A DNA stretch of 64,000 nt, from contig ONMF01000009.1 in assembly GCA_900318865.1 (NCBI GenBank), positions 25,042 through 89,041 on the forward strand, given 5' to 3'. This document shows positions 25,488 through 63,210 of the stretch, piece after piece (the first letter of the stretch is position 1; each line of letters opens with the position of its first letter). Under the pieces are notes generated by a model, which was not told the origin of the DNA, searched no databases, and saw only the letters and a program-made list of their open reading frames with translations. Source of the DNA: an uncultured Prevotellaceae bacterium (lineage in GTDB: Bacteria; Bacteroidota; Bacteroidia; Bacteroidales; Muribaculaceae). A program made the position numbers and the translations under genes.

Positions 25488-25595
25488 ATACGCATCGGCA
25501 AGCAAAAAAAGGGTAACGTTGGCTCTGCCCAAGTTACTTTCGCTCGGAAAACCTCAAACGAGTTTGGGTTTTCGCTCGCTTATTCGTAACTTTGC
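25488..25595. repeat. Composite palindromic repeat overlapping the ygiQ promoter
   Basis: Minus-strand GCAGAGCCAA...TGCCGATGCGTA unit followed by the hairpin AAGTTAC...AAAACCTCAAAC-GA-GTTTGGGTTTT...GTAACTT, whose 3' arm contains TAACTTTG. Confidence 0.6.
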
Positions 25596-38015: not shown

Positions 38016-38260
38016 GAAAGTTCTTTGAAAAATTGTCCACATCAAAGTAGATCGGGATACTCTTCAATTATATTATGAAATGCCGAGACAAGCATTGCAG
38101 TCAATGGCGGGCCTCGACCGAAAGGTGCAGCCCAGCGCTGCCGGAGGATTACAAAGATGCGATGCCCTCAAAACTTGTTTTTATCGGAGTTTCATCACAT
38201 CCTTTGGTGTGGCTTCTTATAGCGGGGTGCTTCACATTGCAGTGGGGCACCCTTTGTTTT
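38016..38260 (+). ncRNA. Bacteroidales-1 motif / putative 6S-like RNA
   Basis: Own TATCTTTG promoter (38001-38008) and terminator (38225-38262), no credible ORF. Long rod pairing: CCACATCAAAG/CTTTGGTGTGG, ATGAAA..CCGA..GACAAG/CTTGTT..TCGG..TTTCAT, GCATTGCA/TGCGATGC, apical GAAA loop. Lies downstream of rplT. Confidence 0.7.
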
Positions 38261-50380: not shown

Positions 50381-50453
50381 GCGACAATAGCTCAGTTGGT
50401 AGAGCGCGACCTTGCCAAGGTCGAGGTCGCGGGTCCGAGTCCCGTTTGTCGCT
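50381..50453 (+). tRNA. tRNA-Gly (GCC)
   Basis: Cloverleaf GCGACAA/TTGTCGC with anticodon loop TTGCCAA; CCA not encoded. Confidence 0.96.
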
Positions 50454-50463
50454 CAACCCAAAT

Positions 50464-50550
50464 GTCCAGGTGGCGGAATTGGTAGACGCGCTACTTTGAG
50501 GGGGTAGTGCCCGTTCGGGCGTGTGAGTTCGAGTCTCATCTTGGACACCA
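50464..50550 (+). tRNA. tRNA-Leu (GAG)
   Basis: GTCCAGG/CTTGGAC acceptor stem, anticodon loop TTGAGGG, long variable arm and encoded CCA. Confidence 0.96.
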
Positions 50551-51949: not shown

Positions 51950-52195
51950 AGGATATGTTGCAAAAGTACAATATTATCATGATAAAACGTTTCATTTTCC
52001 ATGCTAATCTTTATTTTGGTGCAAAATTAATGAATGAAGAAATCATTGTCAATGCCAAAAAAGAGTTTTGTTCTTATGCGTAGTAGGCTTATTAACAGAT
52101 AGATATAAAACTGCCGGAATCGAGATGCTTATGTAATATGCTGATAATTAATAATATGATGTCGCCGAATTTAACATATAGGTATAGGCGCTCTT

Positions 52196-52522
52196 GTCGT
52201 GGGTGGATTCAAGCACCGACTTCCATTCGCAGAAGATATTGAACGCGCCCATAAGCAGCGTGAAGAACGGTGCCGACAGCACGAACGATGTCAGCACGTC
52301 GATGCAGGAAAGACACAGCATGGGGAGAAAGTATTTGGTGGCTTTCTCCGTGGTCATTTTCAATGCCCTGCTGGTTGTGACTTTCCCTGCGAGTTTGGCC
52401 TTGCGCAGTCCGGCGATGAAATCGACGGCCATTGCCAGAATGACGGCGATGTAGGCGATTGCGAGCCACACGGCATGAATGTGCAGTGAGGCGTTTTTGA
52501 GTGTTTCGACTAAAAATTCCAT
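52196..52522 (-). pseudogene. 3'-truncated phage holin-like gene
   Basis: AMAVDFIAGLRKAK..G...SRALKMT..KA.KYF..L....ID...CEWKSV.E pattern of Bacteroidales phage holins; coding-like GC ends abruptly after ESTHDK and runs into AT-rich sequence. Confidence 0.6.
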
Positions 52523-52531
52523 AGAATTTGA

Positions 52532-52559
52532 TGAGTGATTAGTGGTGAGTGATGAGTGA
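52532..52559. repeat. 4 x 7-bp tandem repeat in the holin 5' UTR
   Basis: TGAGTGA TTAGTGG TGAGTGA TGAGTGA. Confidence 0.75.
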
Positions 52560-52568
52560 TTTTTGTCA

Positions 52569-52604
52569 CAAAGGTCACTCAAAGAAACCAGACTACAAAA
52601 GACA
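52569..52604 (-). promoter_or_regulatory. Island promoter motif copy 1 (TGTCTTTT-N20-GACCTTTG)
   Basis: Exact 20-nt spacing, upstream of the holin stub. Confidence 0.6.
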
Positions 52605-56380: not shown

Positions 56381-56445
56381 AACAATCGTGCAAACCGAAT
56401 GCAGAGTCAAGCTTGCTTGAACTATGCTAAGAGGCGCAGCCGATT
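56381..56445 (+). repeat. Short palindromic dispersed repeat (REP/MITE-like)
   Basis: AAC[AATCGTGCAAACCGAATGCAGAGTCAAGCTTGCTTGAACTATGCTAAGAGGCGCAGCCGATT]AAC: AATCG/CGATT ends, internal hairpin and a possible AAC direct repeat. Confidence 0.6.
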
Positions 56446-58456: not shown

Positions 58457-58868
58457 TCAGCTACTTCTCCCGAAATTTTTATCGAGGGCGTTGCTCAAAA
58501 TGCCCGTGAAAGTGGCCCCGATATTATCCTCATAGAACTCCTTGATTCGCATTGCCGAGGCGTAATACTTGCGCGAGAACCAACGGCGGCGTTTGCTTGC
58601 CGTGCCGCCAAGCCCAGTCGTTATTGCCGTAGCGGTGCAGGACTTTCAGCCCTGCCCAGCGGCAGAGGCAATAGGCTTTGACATCGGTTGCGGTGTAGCC
58701 CTGCGCGAGCAAGACGAAAACGTACCGAAGCTGCTTGTCCGATAAATCCGCGGTTTAGCGAGAGCAGAAAGAATAACGTTTTTTCTTTTTGCCAAGCGTG
58801 AGCGGATTATCTAAATCTTCCCATCTGGTGGGAAGTTTGAGGTCGATGGAGATTTTGTCTTGTTGCAT
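58457..58868 (-). pseudogene. Fusion of two phage-like gene fragments, interrupted by a 69-bp insertion
   Basis: Reconstructed N-terminal fragment MQQDKISIDLKLPTRWEDLSDKQLRYVFVLLAQGY...HGKQ joins out of frame to the C-terminal fragment KRRRWFSRKYYASAMRIKEFYEDNIGATFTGILSNALDKNFGRSS*. Confidence 0.55.
58743..58817 (+). mobile_element. 63-bp MITE/REP-like insertion flanked by a TAAATC direct repeat
   Basis: TAAATC at 58743-58748 and 58812-58817; internal AATCCGC/GCGGATT inverted repeat. Removing 58749-58817 restores the frame W-E-D-L-S-D-K-Q. Confidence 0.72.
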
Positions 58869-58890: not shown

Positions 58891-58926
58891 CGAAGGTACG
58901 GTAACCGCTTCTATGCGTAAAAGACA
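58891..58926 (-). promoter_or_regulatory. Island promoter motif copy 4 (TGTCTTTT-N20-TACCTTCG), embedded in a long inverted repeat (58865-58916)
   Basis: Exact 20-nt spacing; GCATAG..AAGCGGTTA.CGTAC/GTACG.TAACCGCTT.CTATGC. Confidence 0.58.
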
Positions 58927-59420
58927 ACGATTTGTGCCTTATCTCACAATCATGTTGAGCATCGCTCTAACTCGTTCACGCTCGGCAATGCTCATGCAAG
59001 CATGGCGTTGCTCTCACTTAATCACTCGTTTTTTGCCGTCTTCGATGACGATGCCCTTGTAGTCCTTGCCTACGGGTTGGCCCATGAGGTTGTAACGCTG
59101 GCCGCTCTTTGCGGGCGCCACGTTGATGTCCTCAACACCGGTAGCGATGGCCTCCCTGAAGGTGGCGGTCACTGCCACGGGAGCAGCCGGCATCTGGAAG
59201 GTGTAAGTGCCATTCTCACCAGGAGTGAGCTCCAATGAGCCGCCGCGCAGACGCAAGGGTGCGCCGCTCGGCTCGCCGTCGACGGTGGTCACGGTGAGGT
59301 TTTCCAACTCATAACCATCATCGGGTGTCACGGTCAGCGTCACGGTCTCGCCCTCGGCGGCGGTAGTCTTATCACATTCCACTGTGCCGTGCTCAAACGA
59401 TTCGGGCAGACTGATGGCGA
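58913..59420. repeat. ~500-bp direct repeat, copy 1 (3' coding module plus 3' UTR of the surface-protein cassette)
   Basis: Near-identical to 60992-61499 at offset 2079. Confidence 0.92.
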
Positions 59421-60633
59421 ACTGAGGCGACACCACGTTCAGATGCATGACTGACATACCAGGCATATCAGGATTGCCTGAAGCCTTGACGGTATAGGTG
59501 ACACCAGCCTCCAGATTGATCGTGAAATCCAAATTTGAACTGACGTTAAAATATCTGCTAATCAAATTTTCTCCCAGATATATTTCAATAGCGGGACGTA
59601 TTTCAGCATCGCCAGTTGTGTAGAACCTATAATCACCGCTCTCTGTAGGCGTGAATAAATAATCGAAGGAGTTACCATATGGAACGTCAATCACATTCTT
59701 GCCCACAGTGAGGGGGGGGAGTTCGAGTTTGGCGATGTTAAAGATCACGCCCTCGAGTACGTCTTCTACTTGAGCCATCGGCACGACGTAGTAAGTCTCA
59801 TTTGCCTCAAGCATGGCTCCTACCTTGACCGTTTCACCCGCAGGAGCATAACCAGAACCTTTAAGGTCGTTGTTTTTAAGAAGCAGTACTTGCGCTATGG
59901 CGCCGCAGTTCATCGAGAAAACGTAGGCTCCACTTTCTTCGGGCACAAAGGCATATTGTGTGCCATCGTAACTCAAATCTATCTCATTGTCGCCCATTTG
60001 GAGCGATGGCATCTCGTATGACCCGCTGATGACGACATCGGCTGCGGGCATGGTGAATGTGTAAACCATTCCAGATTCATCGACTGTCATGGCGACAGGC
60101 TGGCCGCCGCTGGTGGCCGTCAGACCAGAAATAGTCACTCCTGGACTCACCGTTAGTTTGACTTCTTGTCCCTCGTAGGCCACAACAGGCAGTGGTCCCA
60201 TCACATTTGAGAGTTCGGCACACTCGGGGTCGGGGATGATGATGTGGCCTGGGCGTATCACAACCTGGGCAGAAACACTTGTAGTTAATTCATTATTAGG
60301 TAACAGCCGCATGATATAGGTGGTGCCGGCGTAAAGCTTGTTCGGATAGCCACAGTGGCTGACGTGCGTCTGTAGGAGTGCATCCGGCTCGGACCAGGCA
60401 TAGTACAGAGAGTCGCTCCACAGGTTTAAAGCCATGGAATGCGATTCGGCGCATGTTGTGCTTATCACATAATAACCGGTCTCCTCGGGAGTGAACGACA
60501 GATAGCCCTTGTCACTGTCATTAGAGCCTAACTCAATTCCATTGTTCTCTCCCATTTGGAGCGGGATGAACTCTTGTGCCCACACCGTGGCGGTGGTGAG
60601 CAGTGCGAAAAGAAATAGTAATACTTTTTTCAT
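59014..60633 (-). CDS. Secreted modular surface protein A (three PPC-like beta-sandwich repeats, InlB-B-like repeats, T9SS-like tail)
   Basis: Signal peptide; repeated L..G.N.I...F.P.ESG.Y.F; GETVTLTVTPDDGYEL; YNLMGQPV...KGIVIEDGKK. Confidence 0.82.
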   Translation of the reverse strand: MKKVLLFLFALLTTATVWAQEFIPLQMGENNGIELGSNDSDKGYLSFTPEETGYYVISTTCAESHSMALNLWSDSLYYAWSEPDALLQTHVSHCGYPNKLYAGTTYIMRLLPNNELTTSVSAQVVIRPGHIIIPDPECAELSNVMGPLPVVAYEGQEVKLTVSPGVTISGLTATSGGQPVAMTVDESGMVYTFTMPAADVVISGSYEMPSLQMGDNEIDLSYDGTQYAFVPEESGAYVFSMNCGAIAQVLLLKNNDLKGSGYAPAGETVKVGAMLEANETYYVVPMAQVEDVLEGVIFNIAKLELPPLTVGKNVIDVPYGNSFDYLFTPTESGDYRFYTTGDAEIRPAIEIYLGENLISRYFNVSSNLDFTINLEAGVTYTVKASGNPDMPGMSVMHLNVVSPQFAISLPESFEHGTVECDKTTAAEGETVTLTVTPDDGYELENLTVTTVDGEPSGAPLRLRGGSLELTPGENGTYTFQMPAAPVAVTATFREAIATGVEDINVAPAKSGQRYNLMGQPVGKDYKGIVIEDGKKRVIK

Positions 60634-60991: not shown

Positions 60992-61499
60992 ATGCGTAAA
61001 AGACAACGATTTGTGCCTTATCTCACAATCATGTTGAGCATCGCTCTAACTCGTTCACGTTCGGCAATGCTCATGCAAGCAAGGCGTTGCTCTCACTTAA
61101 TCACTCGTTTCTTGCCGTTCTCGATGACGATGCCCTTGTAATCCTTGCCTACGGGCTGGCCCATGAGGTTGTAACGCTGGCCGCGCTTGGCGGTAGCCAC
61201 GTTGATGTCCTCAACACCGGTAGCGATGGCCTCCCTGAAGGTGGCGGTCACTGCCACGGGAGCCGCCGGCATCTGGAAGGTGTAAGTGCCATTCTCACCA
61301 GGAGTGAGCTCCAATGAGCCGCCGCGCAGACGCAAGGGTGCACCGCTTGGCTCGACGTCAACAGTAGCCACGGTTAGCGTTTCCAACTCGTAGCCGTCGT
61401 CGGGGGTCACGGTCAGCGTCACGGTCTCACCCTCGGCGGCTTCAGTCTTGTCGCAAGTCACCGAGCCATTCTCAAACGATTCGGGCAGCGTAATAGCAA
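60992..61499. repeat. ~500-bp direct repeat, copy 2
   Basis: Near-identical to 58913-59420. Confidence 0.92.
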
Positions 61500-63210
61500 A
61501 TGGCTGATATTCTACGATGGGCATCATCTGGGGTGTGTCGGTGACCGGCGGCAGGGCGAGGAACGCCTCGTTCTGCGGCATCATGTCGCCCAAGTAGCGG
61601 TAGTAGCCCACACCGTAGTTGTTGCCCAGCAAGTAGAAGGTATGCTCTGGGTAGTTTACAGCTGTCCAGTTGGGGATGTATCTGGGGGCGTTCTCGGCGT
61701 GCAGCTCGTTAGCCCGCGTGTCGCTGCTTGTGTCGGTGGTGCGGTTCAGTTGCACGAAATTGTTGCTCTTGCCCGTCTTCAGCACCACCGCCGTTCCAGC
61801 ATTCACTATCTTGTCTTTCACCTCGGTCAACACCACCTTACCGTCTGCCACCGTGGCTTTATAGACCTTCGCCGCTCCCTGCGCCTTGAAGTTGGCGTAG
61901 TCGTTGTAGAACGTCGTCCAACTCGCGTCGTCCCAGTTATTCGTCCTTGGCTTCAATACCAGCGTCGTTGCGTCGGGAAAGGCTTGCGCTCCCATCGTTG
62001 GATTGCCGCTGATGGTGACCGAGTTCAGGGCGTTACATTCGTTGAATGCTTTATTCCCGATGCTCGTCAAGCTGCTCGGGAGGGTGATGCTTGTCAGGGC
62101 GTCACAATTGAAGAATGCCATCGTCCCGATGCTCGTCAGGCCAGACGGGAATGTGACGCTCGTCAGGGCGTAACAATTGAAGAAGGCTTCATTCCCAATG
62201 CTCGTCAGGCCAGACGGGAATGTGACGTTCGTCAAGTGGATGCAAGAATAGAAGGCGTTGTTGCCAATGCTCGTTACATTGGGCATCTTGAGGGTCTCAA
62301 GTTTGGTCCAGATGAATGCTCCGTCAGCGATGCTCGTGACGGAGGCAGGTAGTTCATCTTCCTTTATCTTTATGCCGCTGTTGTCCACGATATGGACATT
62401 CTTTAAAAATCTGCACTGATTGGCCGACGGTATCGTGCTGGCGTCATAGTCTTGGCTGAAGTATATCGTTCTGAGCTCGCTGAAATCTGAGAAGTTCATG
62501 CCCGTTATTCCTACCACTGCTGCGCCGTCGATGATGGCGGGGAAGGCTAATATGTCGCTTTTCGGTAAGCCAAAAGAAGAGAGTCCCGTGACGTGGCATT
62601 GAGAGCCGTCGCTGCTCTTCTGGATATCCCAACCTGGCGCAGCGTTGGATTCGCAGTGCATATAGATGTAGTCCCCACCGGCACCATCGTTCAGGTCGTA
62701 GCCCGTGGCTGCACTAAAGGTGTATATGCCACCGCTCTGCGTCGCGTTGAAGGTGATTTGGCTGACTGCTTCCATATTTTCCATTATTTCCGTGGTGTAG
62801 TAGAGGTGGATGTCGTCACCGCCGGCATTGCTGTTCAGGTCGCCCTTCTTCTGCTTGAAGTGGTCGCCGCCGTCATAGGGCACCAGCTTAAAGCGATGGC
62901 CGTAGGCGTCACGGGTGTCGGGGGCAGTGCCAGAGGCGTCGCTGATAAGGAAACGCGTGACGAAGGTGTGGTTGGGCGATGCCGTACTTCCCTCTTTGTA
63001 GAGCAGATAGATGTAGTCGCTCGACGAGCCGCAGCCCGCATTCAGGTCCTGGTCGATGACCGTCCAGCCTTGGTCAGTGTAGGTATCCTTAAGCTCGTCG
63101 GTCTCGGTTTTGGTGCCTCCTATGAGCATCACCTCGGCGATGTACTTCGGCTCGGCCCACATCGAGAGACTGGCGAGCACAGCCACAAGTAAGAGTATAA
63201 ACTTTTTCAT
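61093..63210 (-). CDS. Secreted modular surface protein B (MABP/beta-prism-like DLNxGAGGDYIY repeats, BspA-type LRRs, InlB-B-like repeat, T9SS-like tail)
   Basis: Signal peptide; DLNAGCGSSSDYIY, DLNSNAGGDDIH and DLNDGAGGDYIY; TFPSGLTSIG..AF..C LRRs; C-terminal ~135 aa about 90% identical to protein A. Confidence 0.85.
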   Translation of the reverse strand: MKKFILLLVAVLASLSMWAEPKYIAEVMLIGGTKTETDELKDTYTDQGWTVIDQDLNAGCGSSSDYIYLLYKEGSTASPNHTFVTRFLISDASGTAPDTRDAYGHRFKLVPYDGGDHFKQKKGDLNSNAGGDDIHLYYTTEIMENMEAVSQITFNATQSGGIYTFSAATGYDLNDGAGGDYIYMHCESNAAPGWDIQKSSDGSQCHVTGLSSFGLPKSDILAFPAIIDGAAVVGITGMNFSDFSELRTIYFSQDYDASTIPSANQCRFLKNVHIVDNSGIKIKEDELPASVTSIADGAFIWTKLETLKMPNVTSIGNNAFYSCIHLTNVTFPSGLTSIGNEAFFNCYALTSVTFPSGLTSIGTMAFFNCDALTSITLPSSLTSIGNKAFNECNALNSVTISGNPTMGAQAFPDATTLVLKPRTNNWDDASWTTFYNDYANFKAQGAAKVYKATVADGKVVLTEVKDKIVNAGTAVVLKTGKSNNFVQLNRTTDTSSDTRANELHAENAPRYIPNWTAVNYPEHTFYLLGNNYGVGYYRYLGDMMPQNEAFLALPPVTDTPQMMPIVEYQPFAITLPESFENGSVTCDKTEAAEGETVTLTVTPDDGYELETLTVATVDVEPSGAPLRLRGGSLELTPGENGTYTFQMPAAPVAVTATFREAIATGVEDINVATAKRGQRYNLMGQPVGKDYKGIVIENGKKRVIK
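62040..62270. repeat. 69-bp tandem repeats encoding 23-aa BspA LRRs
   Basis: CCC(G/A)ATGCTCGTCAGGCCAGACGGGAATGTGACG recurs with a 69-bp period. Confidence 0.85.

Follow-up and report, generated by a model that had tools for sequence, protein, structure and literature searches.

How a segment of fewer than 80 bp, bounded on both sides by the hexamer TAAATC, came to lie within the reading frame of a phage gene, and whether it represents a copy of a repeat that moves, are the questions raised by positions 58743-58817 of the window (the whole 64,000-nucleotide stretch of DNA analyzed here). The elements of this locus are as follows.

58743-58748, plus strand: left word TAAATC, of which empty sites have a single copy; the AATC in it makes up the outer portion of stem P1
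58745-58751 and 58802-58808: the two arms of stem P1, AATCCGC and GCGGATT
58749-58811, plus strand: inserted body of 63 bp, comprising CGC (inner P1), loop GGTTTAGCGAGA, hairpin P2 (58764-58792), loop CCAAGCGTGA, the 3' arm of P1 and the linker ATC
58812-58817, plus strand: right word TAAATC
58530-58868, minus strand: interrupted and truncated phage-gene stub (the intact gene encodes about 250-290 aa)

A precise insertion in a decayed phage gene

On the plus strand, the segment reads TAAATC-CGCGGTTTAGCGAGAGCAGAAAGAATAACGTTTTTTCTTTTTGCCAAGCGTGAGCGGATTATC-TAAATC, and the insertion itself occupies 58749-58817, i.e., 69 bp made up of the 63-bp body and the second TAAATC. The stub is read from the minus strand as an ORF that starts with the ATG at 58868 and gives MQQDKISIDLKLPTRWEDL-DNPLTLGKKKKRYSFCSR*-TADLSDKQLRY; in order of translation, MQQDKISIDLKLPTRWEDL is followed by 23 foreign codons ending in TAA and then by SDKQLRYVFVLLAQG, the stop codon (plus-strand TTA, 58755-58757) lying within the insert. 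The first-pass annotation had described a 63-bp unit with AATCCGC/GCGGATT ends between two TAAATC hexamers in a coding frame, whose removal restores WEDLSDKQ, and our analysis bears this out, coordinates included: the peptide is restored once the 69 bp are taken out, and 11 of 11 aligned homologous loci have an uninterrupted frame reading W(E/H)(D/E)L(S/T)(D/Q)KQLRY, without extra codons.

The comparison of filled and empty sites points the same way. In nucleotide alignments, four homologues (L008 from genome G120, L010 from G161, and L060 and L061) have an empty site with one TAAATC, and the filled alleles are longer than these four by exactly 69 bases. Three metagenome contigs match the 24-mer to the left of the insert; L060 and L061 are empty, while L059 is filled and identical to the window. 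The empty locus of G161, which belongs to the same genus, also matches positions 58910-59109 beside the stub and is thus at least partly syntenic with the window. Because an independent metagenome contig (L059) has the identical filled site, the insertion is not an assembly artifact. That the insert should be such an artifact, or a chance resemblance, is hardly credible: the genome is admittedly a draft of 30 contigs, but the same insert is found in three other species (see below), and the pattern GAGAGCA-N10-40-TGCCRAGCGTGA, which matches twice in the window, has no match in 100 shuffles. The insertion at 58749-58817 is real and precise.

The interrupted gene matched no Pfam or PHROG family. 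Full-length relatives are encoded by 32 IMG/VR contigs, which marks it as a phage gene, and relatives of the stub's protein were found in 35 of 200 genomes of the same family by a six-frame search. The stub is also decayed elsewhere, with a further frameshift and truncation near 58540, and its region is taken to be a prophage remnant, a view supported by a holin-like ORF (Phage_holin_4_1; 52148-52582, minus strand) upstream of it. In G203 (contig C83, locus L063), the sequences neighboring window positions 58553-58823 are joined directly, so that about 271 bp, comprising most of the stub and the insertion site, are missing, owing to a separate deletion in this decaying prophage remnant. The window also contains a Bacteroidales-1 (6S-like) RNA and two tRNA genes (38035-38220; 50381-50547).

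A simpler origin of the inserted DNA was considered and rejected. The insert could have been an inverted copy of the left flank of its target (GATAAATC versus GATTATC), but this resemblance is absent in G206, and the flank bases preexist in empty sites. A search of this genome with blastn-short found no second or near-identical donor copy of the 63 bp, which counts against the view of the insert as a mobile copy; its one 19-nt match to the insert was a signal-peptide coincidence.

Architecture and distribution of the repeat family

Units related to the insert are about 65-75 nt long (typically ~69 nt) and consist of two covarying helices around a near-invariant asymmetric internal loop, GAT-TAAGCGAGAGCA / TGCCGAGCGTGA (5' GAT-TAAGCGAGA, 3' CGAGCGTGA). 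The outer stem, P1, has 7 bp and differs in sequence from locus to locus while its complementarity is kept, the variable ends having the form A-N4-GC / GC-N4-T; the inner hairpin is also variable and has GCA/TGC as its closing pairs. In intergenic DNA, units are found alone or arrayed head to tail, and at least 12 different stem-arm sequences are found among the units listed. When one genome per species was scanned for the loop boxes alone (TTAGCGAGAGCA-N15-30-TGCCRAGCGTGAGC), 23 loci were found, almost all in MAGs labeled rumen-type Prevotella, Prevotellaceae or 'Bacteroidaceae'. Eighteen of the 22 distinct units picked in this way, i.e., by their boxes alone, have 6-7 of the 7 P1 pairs, exactly 3 nt outside the boxes, and they display 10 different stems, including ATGATGC/GCATCAT, AGTCTGC/GCAGACT, AAGATGC/GCATCTT, AAACTGC/GCAGTTT and AAATCGC/GCGATTT. 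In an alignment of 26 units, 86.7% of the cells pair, compared with 70.9% after shuffling and 32-45% with slid partners, and compensatory changes (on both sides) were found in 14 of 18 pairs. Folding of the insert as a single strand predicts the same two helices (z = -2.3). G:T and A:C mismatches number 18 and 14, a split that favors neither strand as the folded one and neither RNA nor DNA.

For many units (in L037, L038, L050, L054 and other loci), a mini-hairpin of the type C-GAA-G, GCGAAGC or CGAAAG lies just 3' of the unit, and it is often followed by the first 4-8 nt of a next unit. Sequences of this type form very stable DNA mini-hairpins.

The form that is canonical in this genome (family 1) reads CAAAGTTAC-GAATAAGCGAGCGCA-(AT-rich hairpin)-TGCCGAGCGTGA-GTAACTT-CGGCG(A/C)AGCCAAC and recurs in head-to-tail order every 74-87 bp. 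With an HMM trained on 28 units of family 1 alone, 53 matches were obtained in the genome at E<1e-3, grouped into 37 arrays. The window insert scored E=3e-3 against this model, and a second unit of the window, unit B, scored E=3.6e-4; by sequence alone, the membership of both is marginal, and it is the architecture that settles it. A covariance model, R1, was built from the 26 aligned units. The units of the window were part of its seed, so the 69 bits obtained for the insert (58743-58813), like the scores of the others, are high by construction.

Besides the insert, the window contains the following units.

25526-25594, minus strand: canonical family-1 unit, CAAAGTTAC-GAATAAGCGAGCGA-hairpin-TTCCGAGCGAAA-GTAACTT
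56388-56441, plus strand: diverged unit of a sister family (family 2), AATC-GTGCAAACCGAATGCA-hairpin-TGC...GCGCAGCC-GATT
58964-59032, minus strand: unit B, which begins in the stop codon of a 539-aa surface-protein gene; 5 of 7 stem positions are paired
61043-61111, minus strand: paralogous duplicate of unit B behind the gene of a 705-aa LRR surface protein, not counted as a separate insertion

This inventory changes the picture of the relatives that had been proposed for the insert from the window alone. Those placed at 58969-59015 and 61048-61094 do belong to the family, and unit B does start in a stop codon, but they amount to one sequence: between 58939-59045 and 61018-61124, near-identity extends through the flanks and exceeds 100 bp, and unit B and its duplicate were copied together with an ~500-bp 3' block of two paralogous surface-protein genes. 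The fold of unit B was not predicted for the single strand. The two genes (59014-60633 and 61093-63210, minus strand; InlB B-repeat; BspA LRR) share this near-identical 3' block as well as the downstream DNA that includes unit B, and relatives of the block are found in G203, G218 and G217 at 86-93% identity. The supposedly degenerate copy at 25488-25530 is indeed related, but it is not degenerate, being instead the tail of the full canonical unit at 25526-25594, which abuts the -7 box TAACTTTG of a gene starting at about 25602. At 56381-56445, by comparison, only the hairpin part of R1 is matched, and the build (GTGCAA...GCAGCC) is that of the sister family; the architecture of this sister family, AAATTA-GTGCAAG-NNGAGCGCA-hairpin-TGCC-TCNN-GCAGCC-TAATTT, gave 55 regular-expression matches in the genome.

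The genome-wide count of copies proposed at the outset gave at least 41 R1 matches in this genome at E up to 0.01, with 150 of ~1,200 candidates scored. Taking one genome per species, R1 matches are present in 97 of 133 genomes of the genus, at 0 to at least 38 each, and among the genomes without a match are a closed one of 3.3 Mb and several with 99% completeness. Elsewhere in the Bacteroidales, 15 of 150 genomes (one per family of the order) have matches, some of 60-70 bits, in which the same loop boxes are combined with new stems such as AAGATAC/GTATCTT. By a strict pattern, 17 matches were counted in this genome, compared with 0-4 per genome in 200 others of the family. At orthologous loci, the closest relative (G237, 78% complete) and this genome differ by four units versus a partial one, by three versus none, and by truncated units. 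We conclude that the motif is old and that recent bursts in particular lineages and rapid turnover have been superimposed on it. Phages carry units as well, as an R1-type unit (39.5 bits) lies outside the target gene at 6612-6678 of L188, a 69.8-kb IMG/VR viral contig; phages thus could move units between hosts.

In Rfam 15, no match overlapped any unit in the parts of the window, the arrays of this genome and the foreign loci that were searched, whether gathering thresholds were applied or E values of up to 1-10 were allowed on short stretches, and the literature consulted on REP, MITE and RAYT in Bacteroidales or Prevotella and on the box sequences yielded only unrelated families or primers. 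The repeat family is real, REP/MITE-like and apparently uncatalogued, and related copies occur at unrelated loci. To this extent, the proposal of an undescribed REP/MITE-like element of Bacteroidales is supported, but the family is much larger and older than had been thought.

Where the units lie with respect to genes deserves separate consideration. In this genome they are found mostly right upstream of gene starts, with a P1 arm falling on the -7 promoter box of Bacteroidetes: read in reverse complement, CAAAGTTA gives TAACTTTG, which we take to be a -7 box of the form TAnnTTTG. By a crude ORF call, the 5' end lies 7-119 bp from a divergent gene start in 29 of 36 scorable arrays. On the strand of the gene, the unit places TTTG, then 19-20 nt, then TAACTTTG, a spacing that presumably fits the Bacteroides -33/-7 promoter consensus. 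Units with AAGATAC-type stems in other genomes likewise lie near gene starts, and units with AATTTGC-type stems follow gene ends, some of them immediately behind a terminator hairpin, with its T-run serving as the stem arm; orientation is mixed in the MAG loci. We rejected the idea that the unit is itself an intrinsic terminator, as the insert lies inside an ORF and the family-1 hairpins are AT-rich and upstream of gene starts. A weak match to the FopS sRNA of Bacteroidetes (44 bits, against a gathering threshold of 56) was seen at G000:C12:49208-49279 (L002 409-480, minus strand), beside a two-unit family-1 array.

Such positions, with the promoter-like elements that the units offer on the strand of the gene, or with starts in stop codons and behind terminator hairpins, are what would be expected of a host cis-regulatory module, that is, a protein-binding structured DNA or RNA that spreads by local duplication and recombination and whose copies within genes are accidents. 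The conservation of the loop sequence across families of the order is also compatible with a host function instead of selfish spread. However, a range from 0 to at least 38 copies within one genus, with none in some complete genomes, is hard to square with an essential role; no Rfam family matches; in G237, the orthologous -7 box and start codon are present without an intact unit; and precise insertions into coding DNA are found in both orientations. On this evidence, we regard the regulatory explanation as unlikely.

Filled alleles of the phage gene and a proposed mode of insertion

BLAST searches revealed full-length relatives of the 71-nt unit in five other genomes of the genus. In three other species (G206, G253 and G299), the unit lies at the same codon of the homologous phage gene. 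The genes of G206 and G253 are full length (308 and 310 aa) and remain open through the extra 23 codons, and the stem in all three shows a compensatory change from AATCCGC/GCGGATT to AATTCGC/GCGAATT. The first-pass annotation had regarded the occurrence of these 23 codons in homologous genes as evidence against mobility. They do occur there, and mobility is nonetheless not refuted, because the filled alleles do not form one clade, every lineage but that of G206 has a closer empty relative, and the insert is more alike among them than the flanks. Across lineages, inserts are 78-90% identical, compared with 59-65% for the flanks (176 flanking columns). The window allele has its nearest relatives among empty alleles (82%); those of G253 and G299 are each as close to an empty relative (G181) as they are to each other (86-88%); and the nearest allele to that of G206 is an empty one that is only 67% identical. 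In a likelihood tree of the flanks, uniting the filled alleles costs 84 log-likelihood units and is rejected by the AU test; the tree requires at least two changes of state. The 48 and 63 nt beside the insert also resemble empty alleles most, and on this ground we rejected spread by homologous recombination in which the flanks are co-converted. The word is CAAATC in both of its copies in G206 and TAAATC in both in the window, as expected of separate insertions into slightly different targets.

The pattern at this first site is either repeated precise gain or one gain followed by several exact losses and accompanied by unusual conservation of the insert. The latter would mean one ancient insertion in the ancestor of this clade of phage genes, its structure kept by selection and the insert lost several times by slippage between the 6-bp repeats. 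The four in-gene copies do share a private hairpin (GAAAGAA...TTTCTTTT) and are closer to each other than to copies elsewhere, two of the host genes are open through the 23 codons, and direct repeats favor precise deletion. Yet at least three independent exact deletions would be needed, the insert would have to evolve two to three times slower than the coding DNA on either side of it, the differing word pairs of the window and G206 fit separate insertions, and a second, different unit is found at another AAATC word of the same gene. Taken together, these findings make an ancient insertion quite improbable in our estimation.

This second unit is present in four IMG/VR contigs. It has the stem AAATCG/CGATTT and the loop TGCCAACGAGAGCA ... 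TGCCGAGTGTAGC, and it is found some 15 codons farther along the gene, oriented the other way; here too the inserted length is exactly 69 nt, and the ORF of 267 aa remains open. Four alleles in IMG/VR are filled and eight are empty. Empty alleles read GACGAAATCAAG and filled alleles GACGAC-AAATCG...CGATTT-TGCTGGGAAG-AAATC-AAG, so that insertion takes the number of AAATC words from one to two; the upstream one is the outer stem arm, and its complement is inside the insert. The second site follows the same formula as the window insert. The TAAATC repeat does not appear to be an ordinary target duplication: the word itself forms the outer stem arm, its complement lies within the inserted DNA, and the arrangement recurs at the second site.

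Junctions at unrelated loci were compared with these two. A solo unit of the same sub-family in G219 is flanked by AAATC and AAATT, and in the arrays of G317 the junction between units, GATT-ATC(T/A)A-AATC (ATCTAAATC), is the same as the right junction in the window. For family 1, 73 bp at 25513-25585 look inserted between two GTAAC words relative to G237, which keeps TCGGCAAG-A-run-GTAACTTTGCAAACGATG without the family-1 unit; this intergenic alignment is less clean, and we consider the segment a probable third case of insertion, with GTAAC as the word. The direct repeats flanking inserts are thus 5-6 nt long, (T)AAATC at two sites and GTAAC for family 1, and are part of the stem. Among 54 solo or array-end units, 7 show the initial 5 nt of the stem again no more than 22 nt downstream, against 2.5 expected (p ~0.007 in a crude test), and most solo units in other genomes have no obvious flanking word repeat. 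Orthologues of the solo units at C5:5714 and C28:65549 gave no further filled/empty pair, as synteny ends. Promoter loci that are filled in G237 and empty in G000 exist, in intergenic DNA that is too diverged to fix their borders.

On balance, we lean toward the view that the 69 bp are one copy of a small, noncoding, structure-bearing mobile repeat whose insertion is matched to a word in the target. A unit would consist of body, linker and word, and would be placed beside a target word that pairs with its own 3' stem arm. A change in the stem would then retarget the element, which would explain why the stems covary yet are specific to the locus. A trans-acting protein presumably recognizes the invariant loop, and by analogy the logic most resembles the single-strand "peel and paste" of enzymes of the IS200/IS605 or REP-RAYT type.

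An extended version of this model is more tentative still, and we offer it as a possibility that is rather unlikely. It would make the unit a programmable mini-element in which the stem arm is the address: the 3' arm would pair with a target word of 5-7 nt, stem mutations would found new sub-families (including those addressed to the -7 box and to terminator T-tracts), insertions would supply fresh -33 boxes, phages would carry the units between hosts, and a protein would read the loop.

No enzyme was found to be linked to the units. A RAYT/TnpA-like or IS transposase acting in trans had been suggested, and the RAYT link is not supported by the data. The single Y1_Tnp gene of this genome (G000:C27:121342-121677) lies between inverted 88-nt GC-rich repeats, which belong to another family, and the only R1 match on that contig is near 24.7 kb. 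Y1 genes are present in 108 of 133 genomes of the genus without relation to unit counts: G268 and G255 have 11 and 8 Y1 matches, respectively, and no units, and G237, G258 and G264 have no Y1 match and 23-28 units, although some of these genomes are incomplete. The Y1 locus itself (G000:C27:120900-122400; L019 1073-2480) consists of the RAYT-like gene between the inverted 88-nt repeats, together with tandem 70-nt units in which the palindrome CTCCCCCTAAGTTAGGGGGAG is found, an arrangement typical of REPIN-RAYT systems and belonging to another repeat family. Several family-1 arrays likewise terminate in this palindrome.

Copying might also proceed without any dedicated enzyme, if a replicating strand switched template at a 5- to 6-nt word into a donor array, copied exactly one period and returned at the next word. 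Hairpin arrays are known to stall replication, and both inserts in coding sequence are exactly 69 nt long and bounded by the word that separates array units, as at the G317 junction. Template switching over 5 nt of homology seldom joins distant loci, however, and the fact that the same site was hit in three diverged gene lineages, as well as the good pairing of the stem in most copies, speaks for a directed process. We consider template switching the less probable, yet still a serious, alternative.

If the word-matched rule holds, dominant gut and rumen bacteria would possess a simple, sequence-addressed way to move ~70 nt of DNA. Promoters would be changed by it, as units sit on -7 boxes and bring a -33 TTTG, and genes would be broken or lengthened by exactly 23 codons. 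Were the programmable model to prove true, promoters would be rewired across the Bacteroidales through fresh -33 boxes. That assemblies are fragmented is indicated by the many unit matches at contig ends, and annotators gain a model with which a common repeat absent from Rfam can be recognized.

Comparison with known repeat systems

The units have much in common with the REP, BIME and REPIN-RAYT systems (Proteobacteria; Y1, HUH) in being short, extragenic, palindromic and high in copy number, in occurring singly or in arrays, and in being patchily distributed between relatives. As in REP-RAYT, a conserved sequence lies beside the hairpin, as expected for a protein recognition site. REP sequences are defined by a 20- to 40-nt imperfect palindrome with a conserved GTAG or CGTC head (PMC3733652). 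The unit described here, in contrast, is ~69 nt long, has two helices and a conserved internal loop, and has no GTAG or CGTC head; unlike REPINs, the units do not flank the RAYT-like gene of the genome, and their number does not track the presence of Y1 genes.

Elements of the IS200/IS605 group (IS608, ISDra2) are recognized through a hairpin and insert beside a 4- to 6-nt word that pairs with a guide inside the element. The working logic proposed here would be the same, and a change of guide would likewise retarget the element. The words behave as they do in that group: at two independent sites, AAATC is present once in empty alleles, and its complement, GATT(T), lies in the inserted DNA. The unit differs in having one hairpin and no distinct left and right ends, in using a plain Watson-Crick stem of 4-7 bp, and in that we found no association with TnpA.

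Correia/NEMIS elements of Neisseria, BOX, RUP and SPRITE of the pneumococcus, and ERIC are further examples of small repeats that can fold and that bring in or disrupt promoters and terminators. BOX, too, is modular, with tandem units, and insertions of such repeats can land in transcribed DNA. Compared with MITE-like repeats, the present family has no fixed terminal inverted repeats derived from a parent IS; its stem varies by locus, and the flanking repeat is sequence specific and part of the stem. No IS with ends matching the stem arms was seen in a search that was less than a full IS survey. Within the Bacteroidales, the described repeat families are PINSR of Prevotella intermedia and P. 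nigrescens, which is 188 bp long, has no inverted repeats and is confined to one clade (PMC4755523), and BrickBuilt of Porphyromonas gingivalis, which is described as a minisatellite inside a MITE (PMC4596501). Both are intergenic, amplified in particular lineages and without a known mobilizing enzyme, as are the units described here; they differ from our family in sequence and build, and the loop boxes are common to neither.

The attC sites of integrons offer a structural parallel, being folded single-strand sites with variable stems of kept geometry, unpaired central bases and a variable terminal hairpin. The core GTTRRRY and inverse core RYYYAAC of attC are absent from the units, which have no integrase context, and a conserved loop combined with a free stem is the reverse of what is found in attC. 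The element thus works like REP/BIME, BOX or Correia elements, yet each of these is defined by features that it does not share, and the rule by which it would choose its targets is potentially new.
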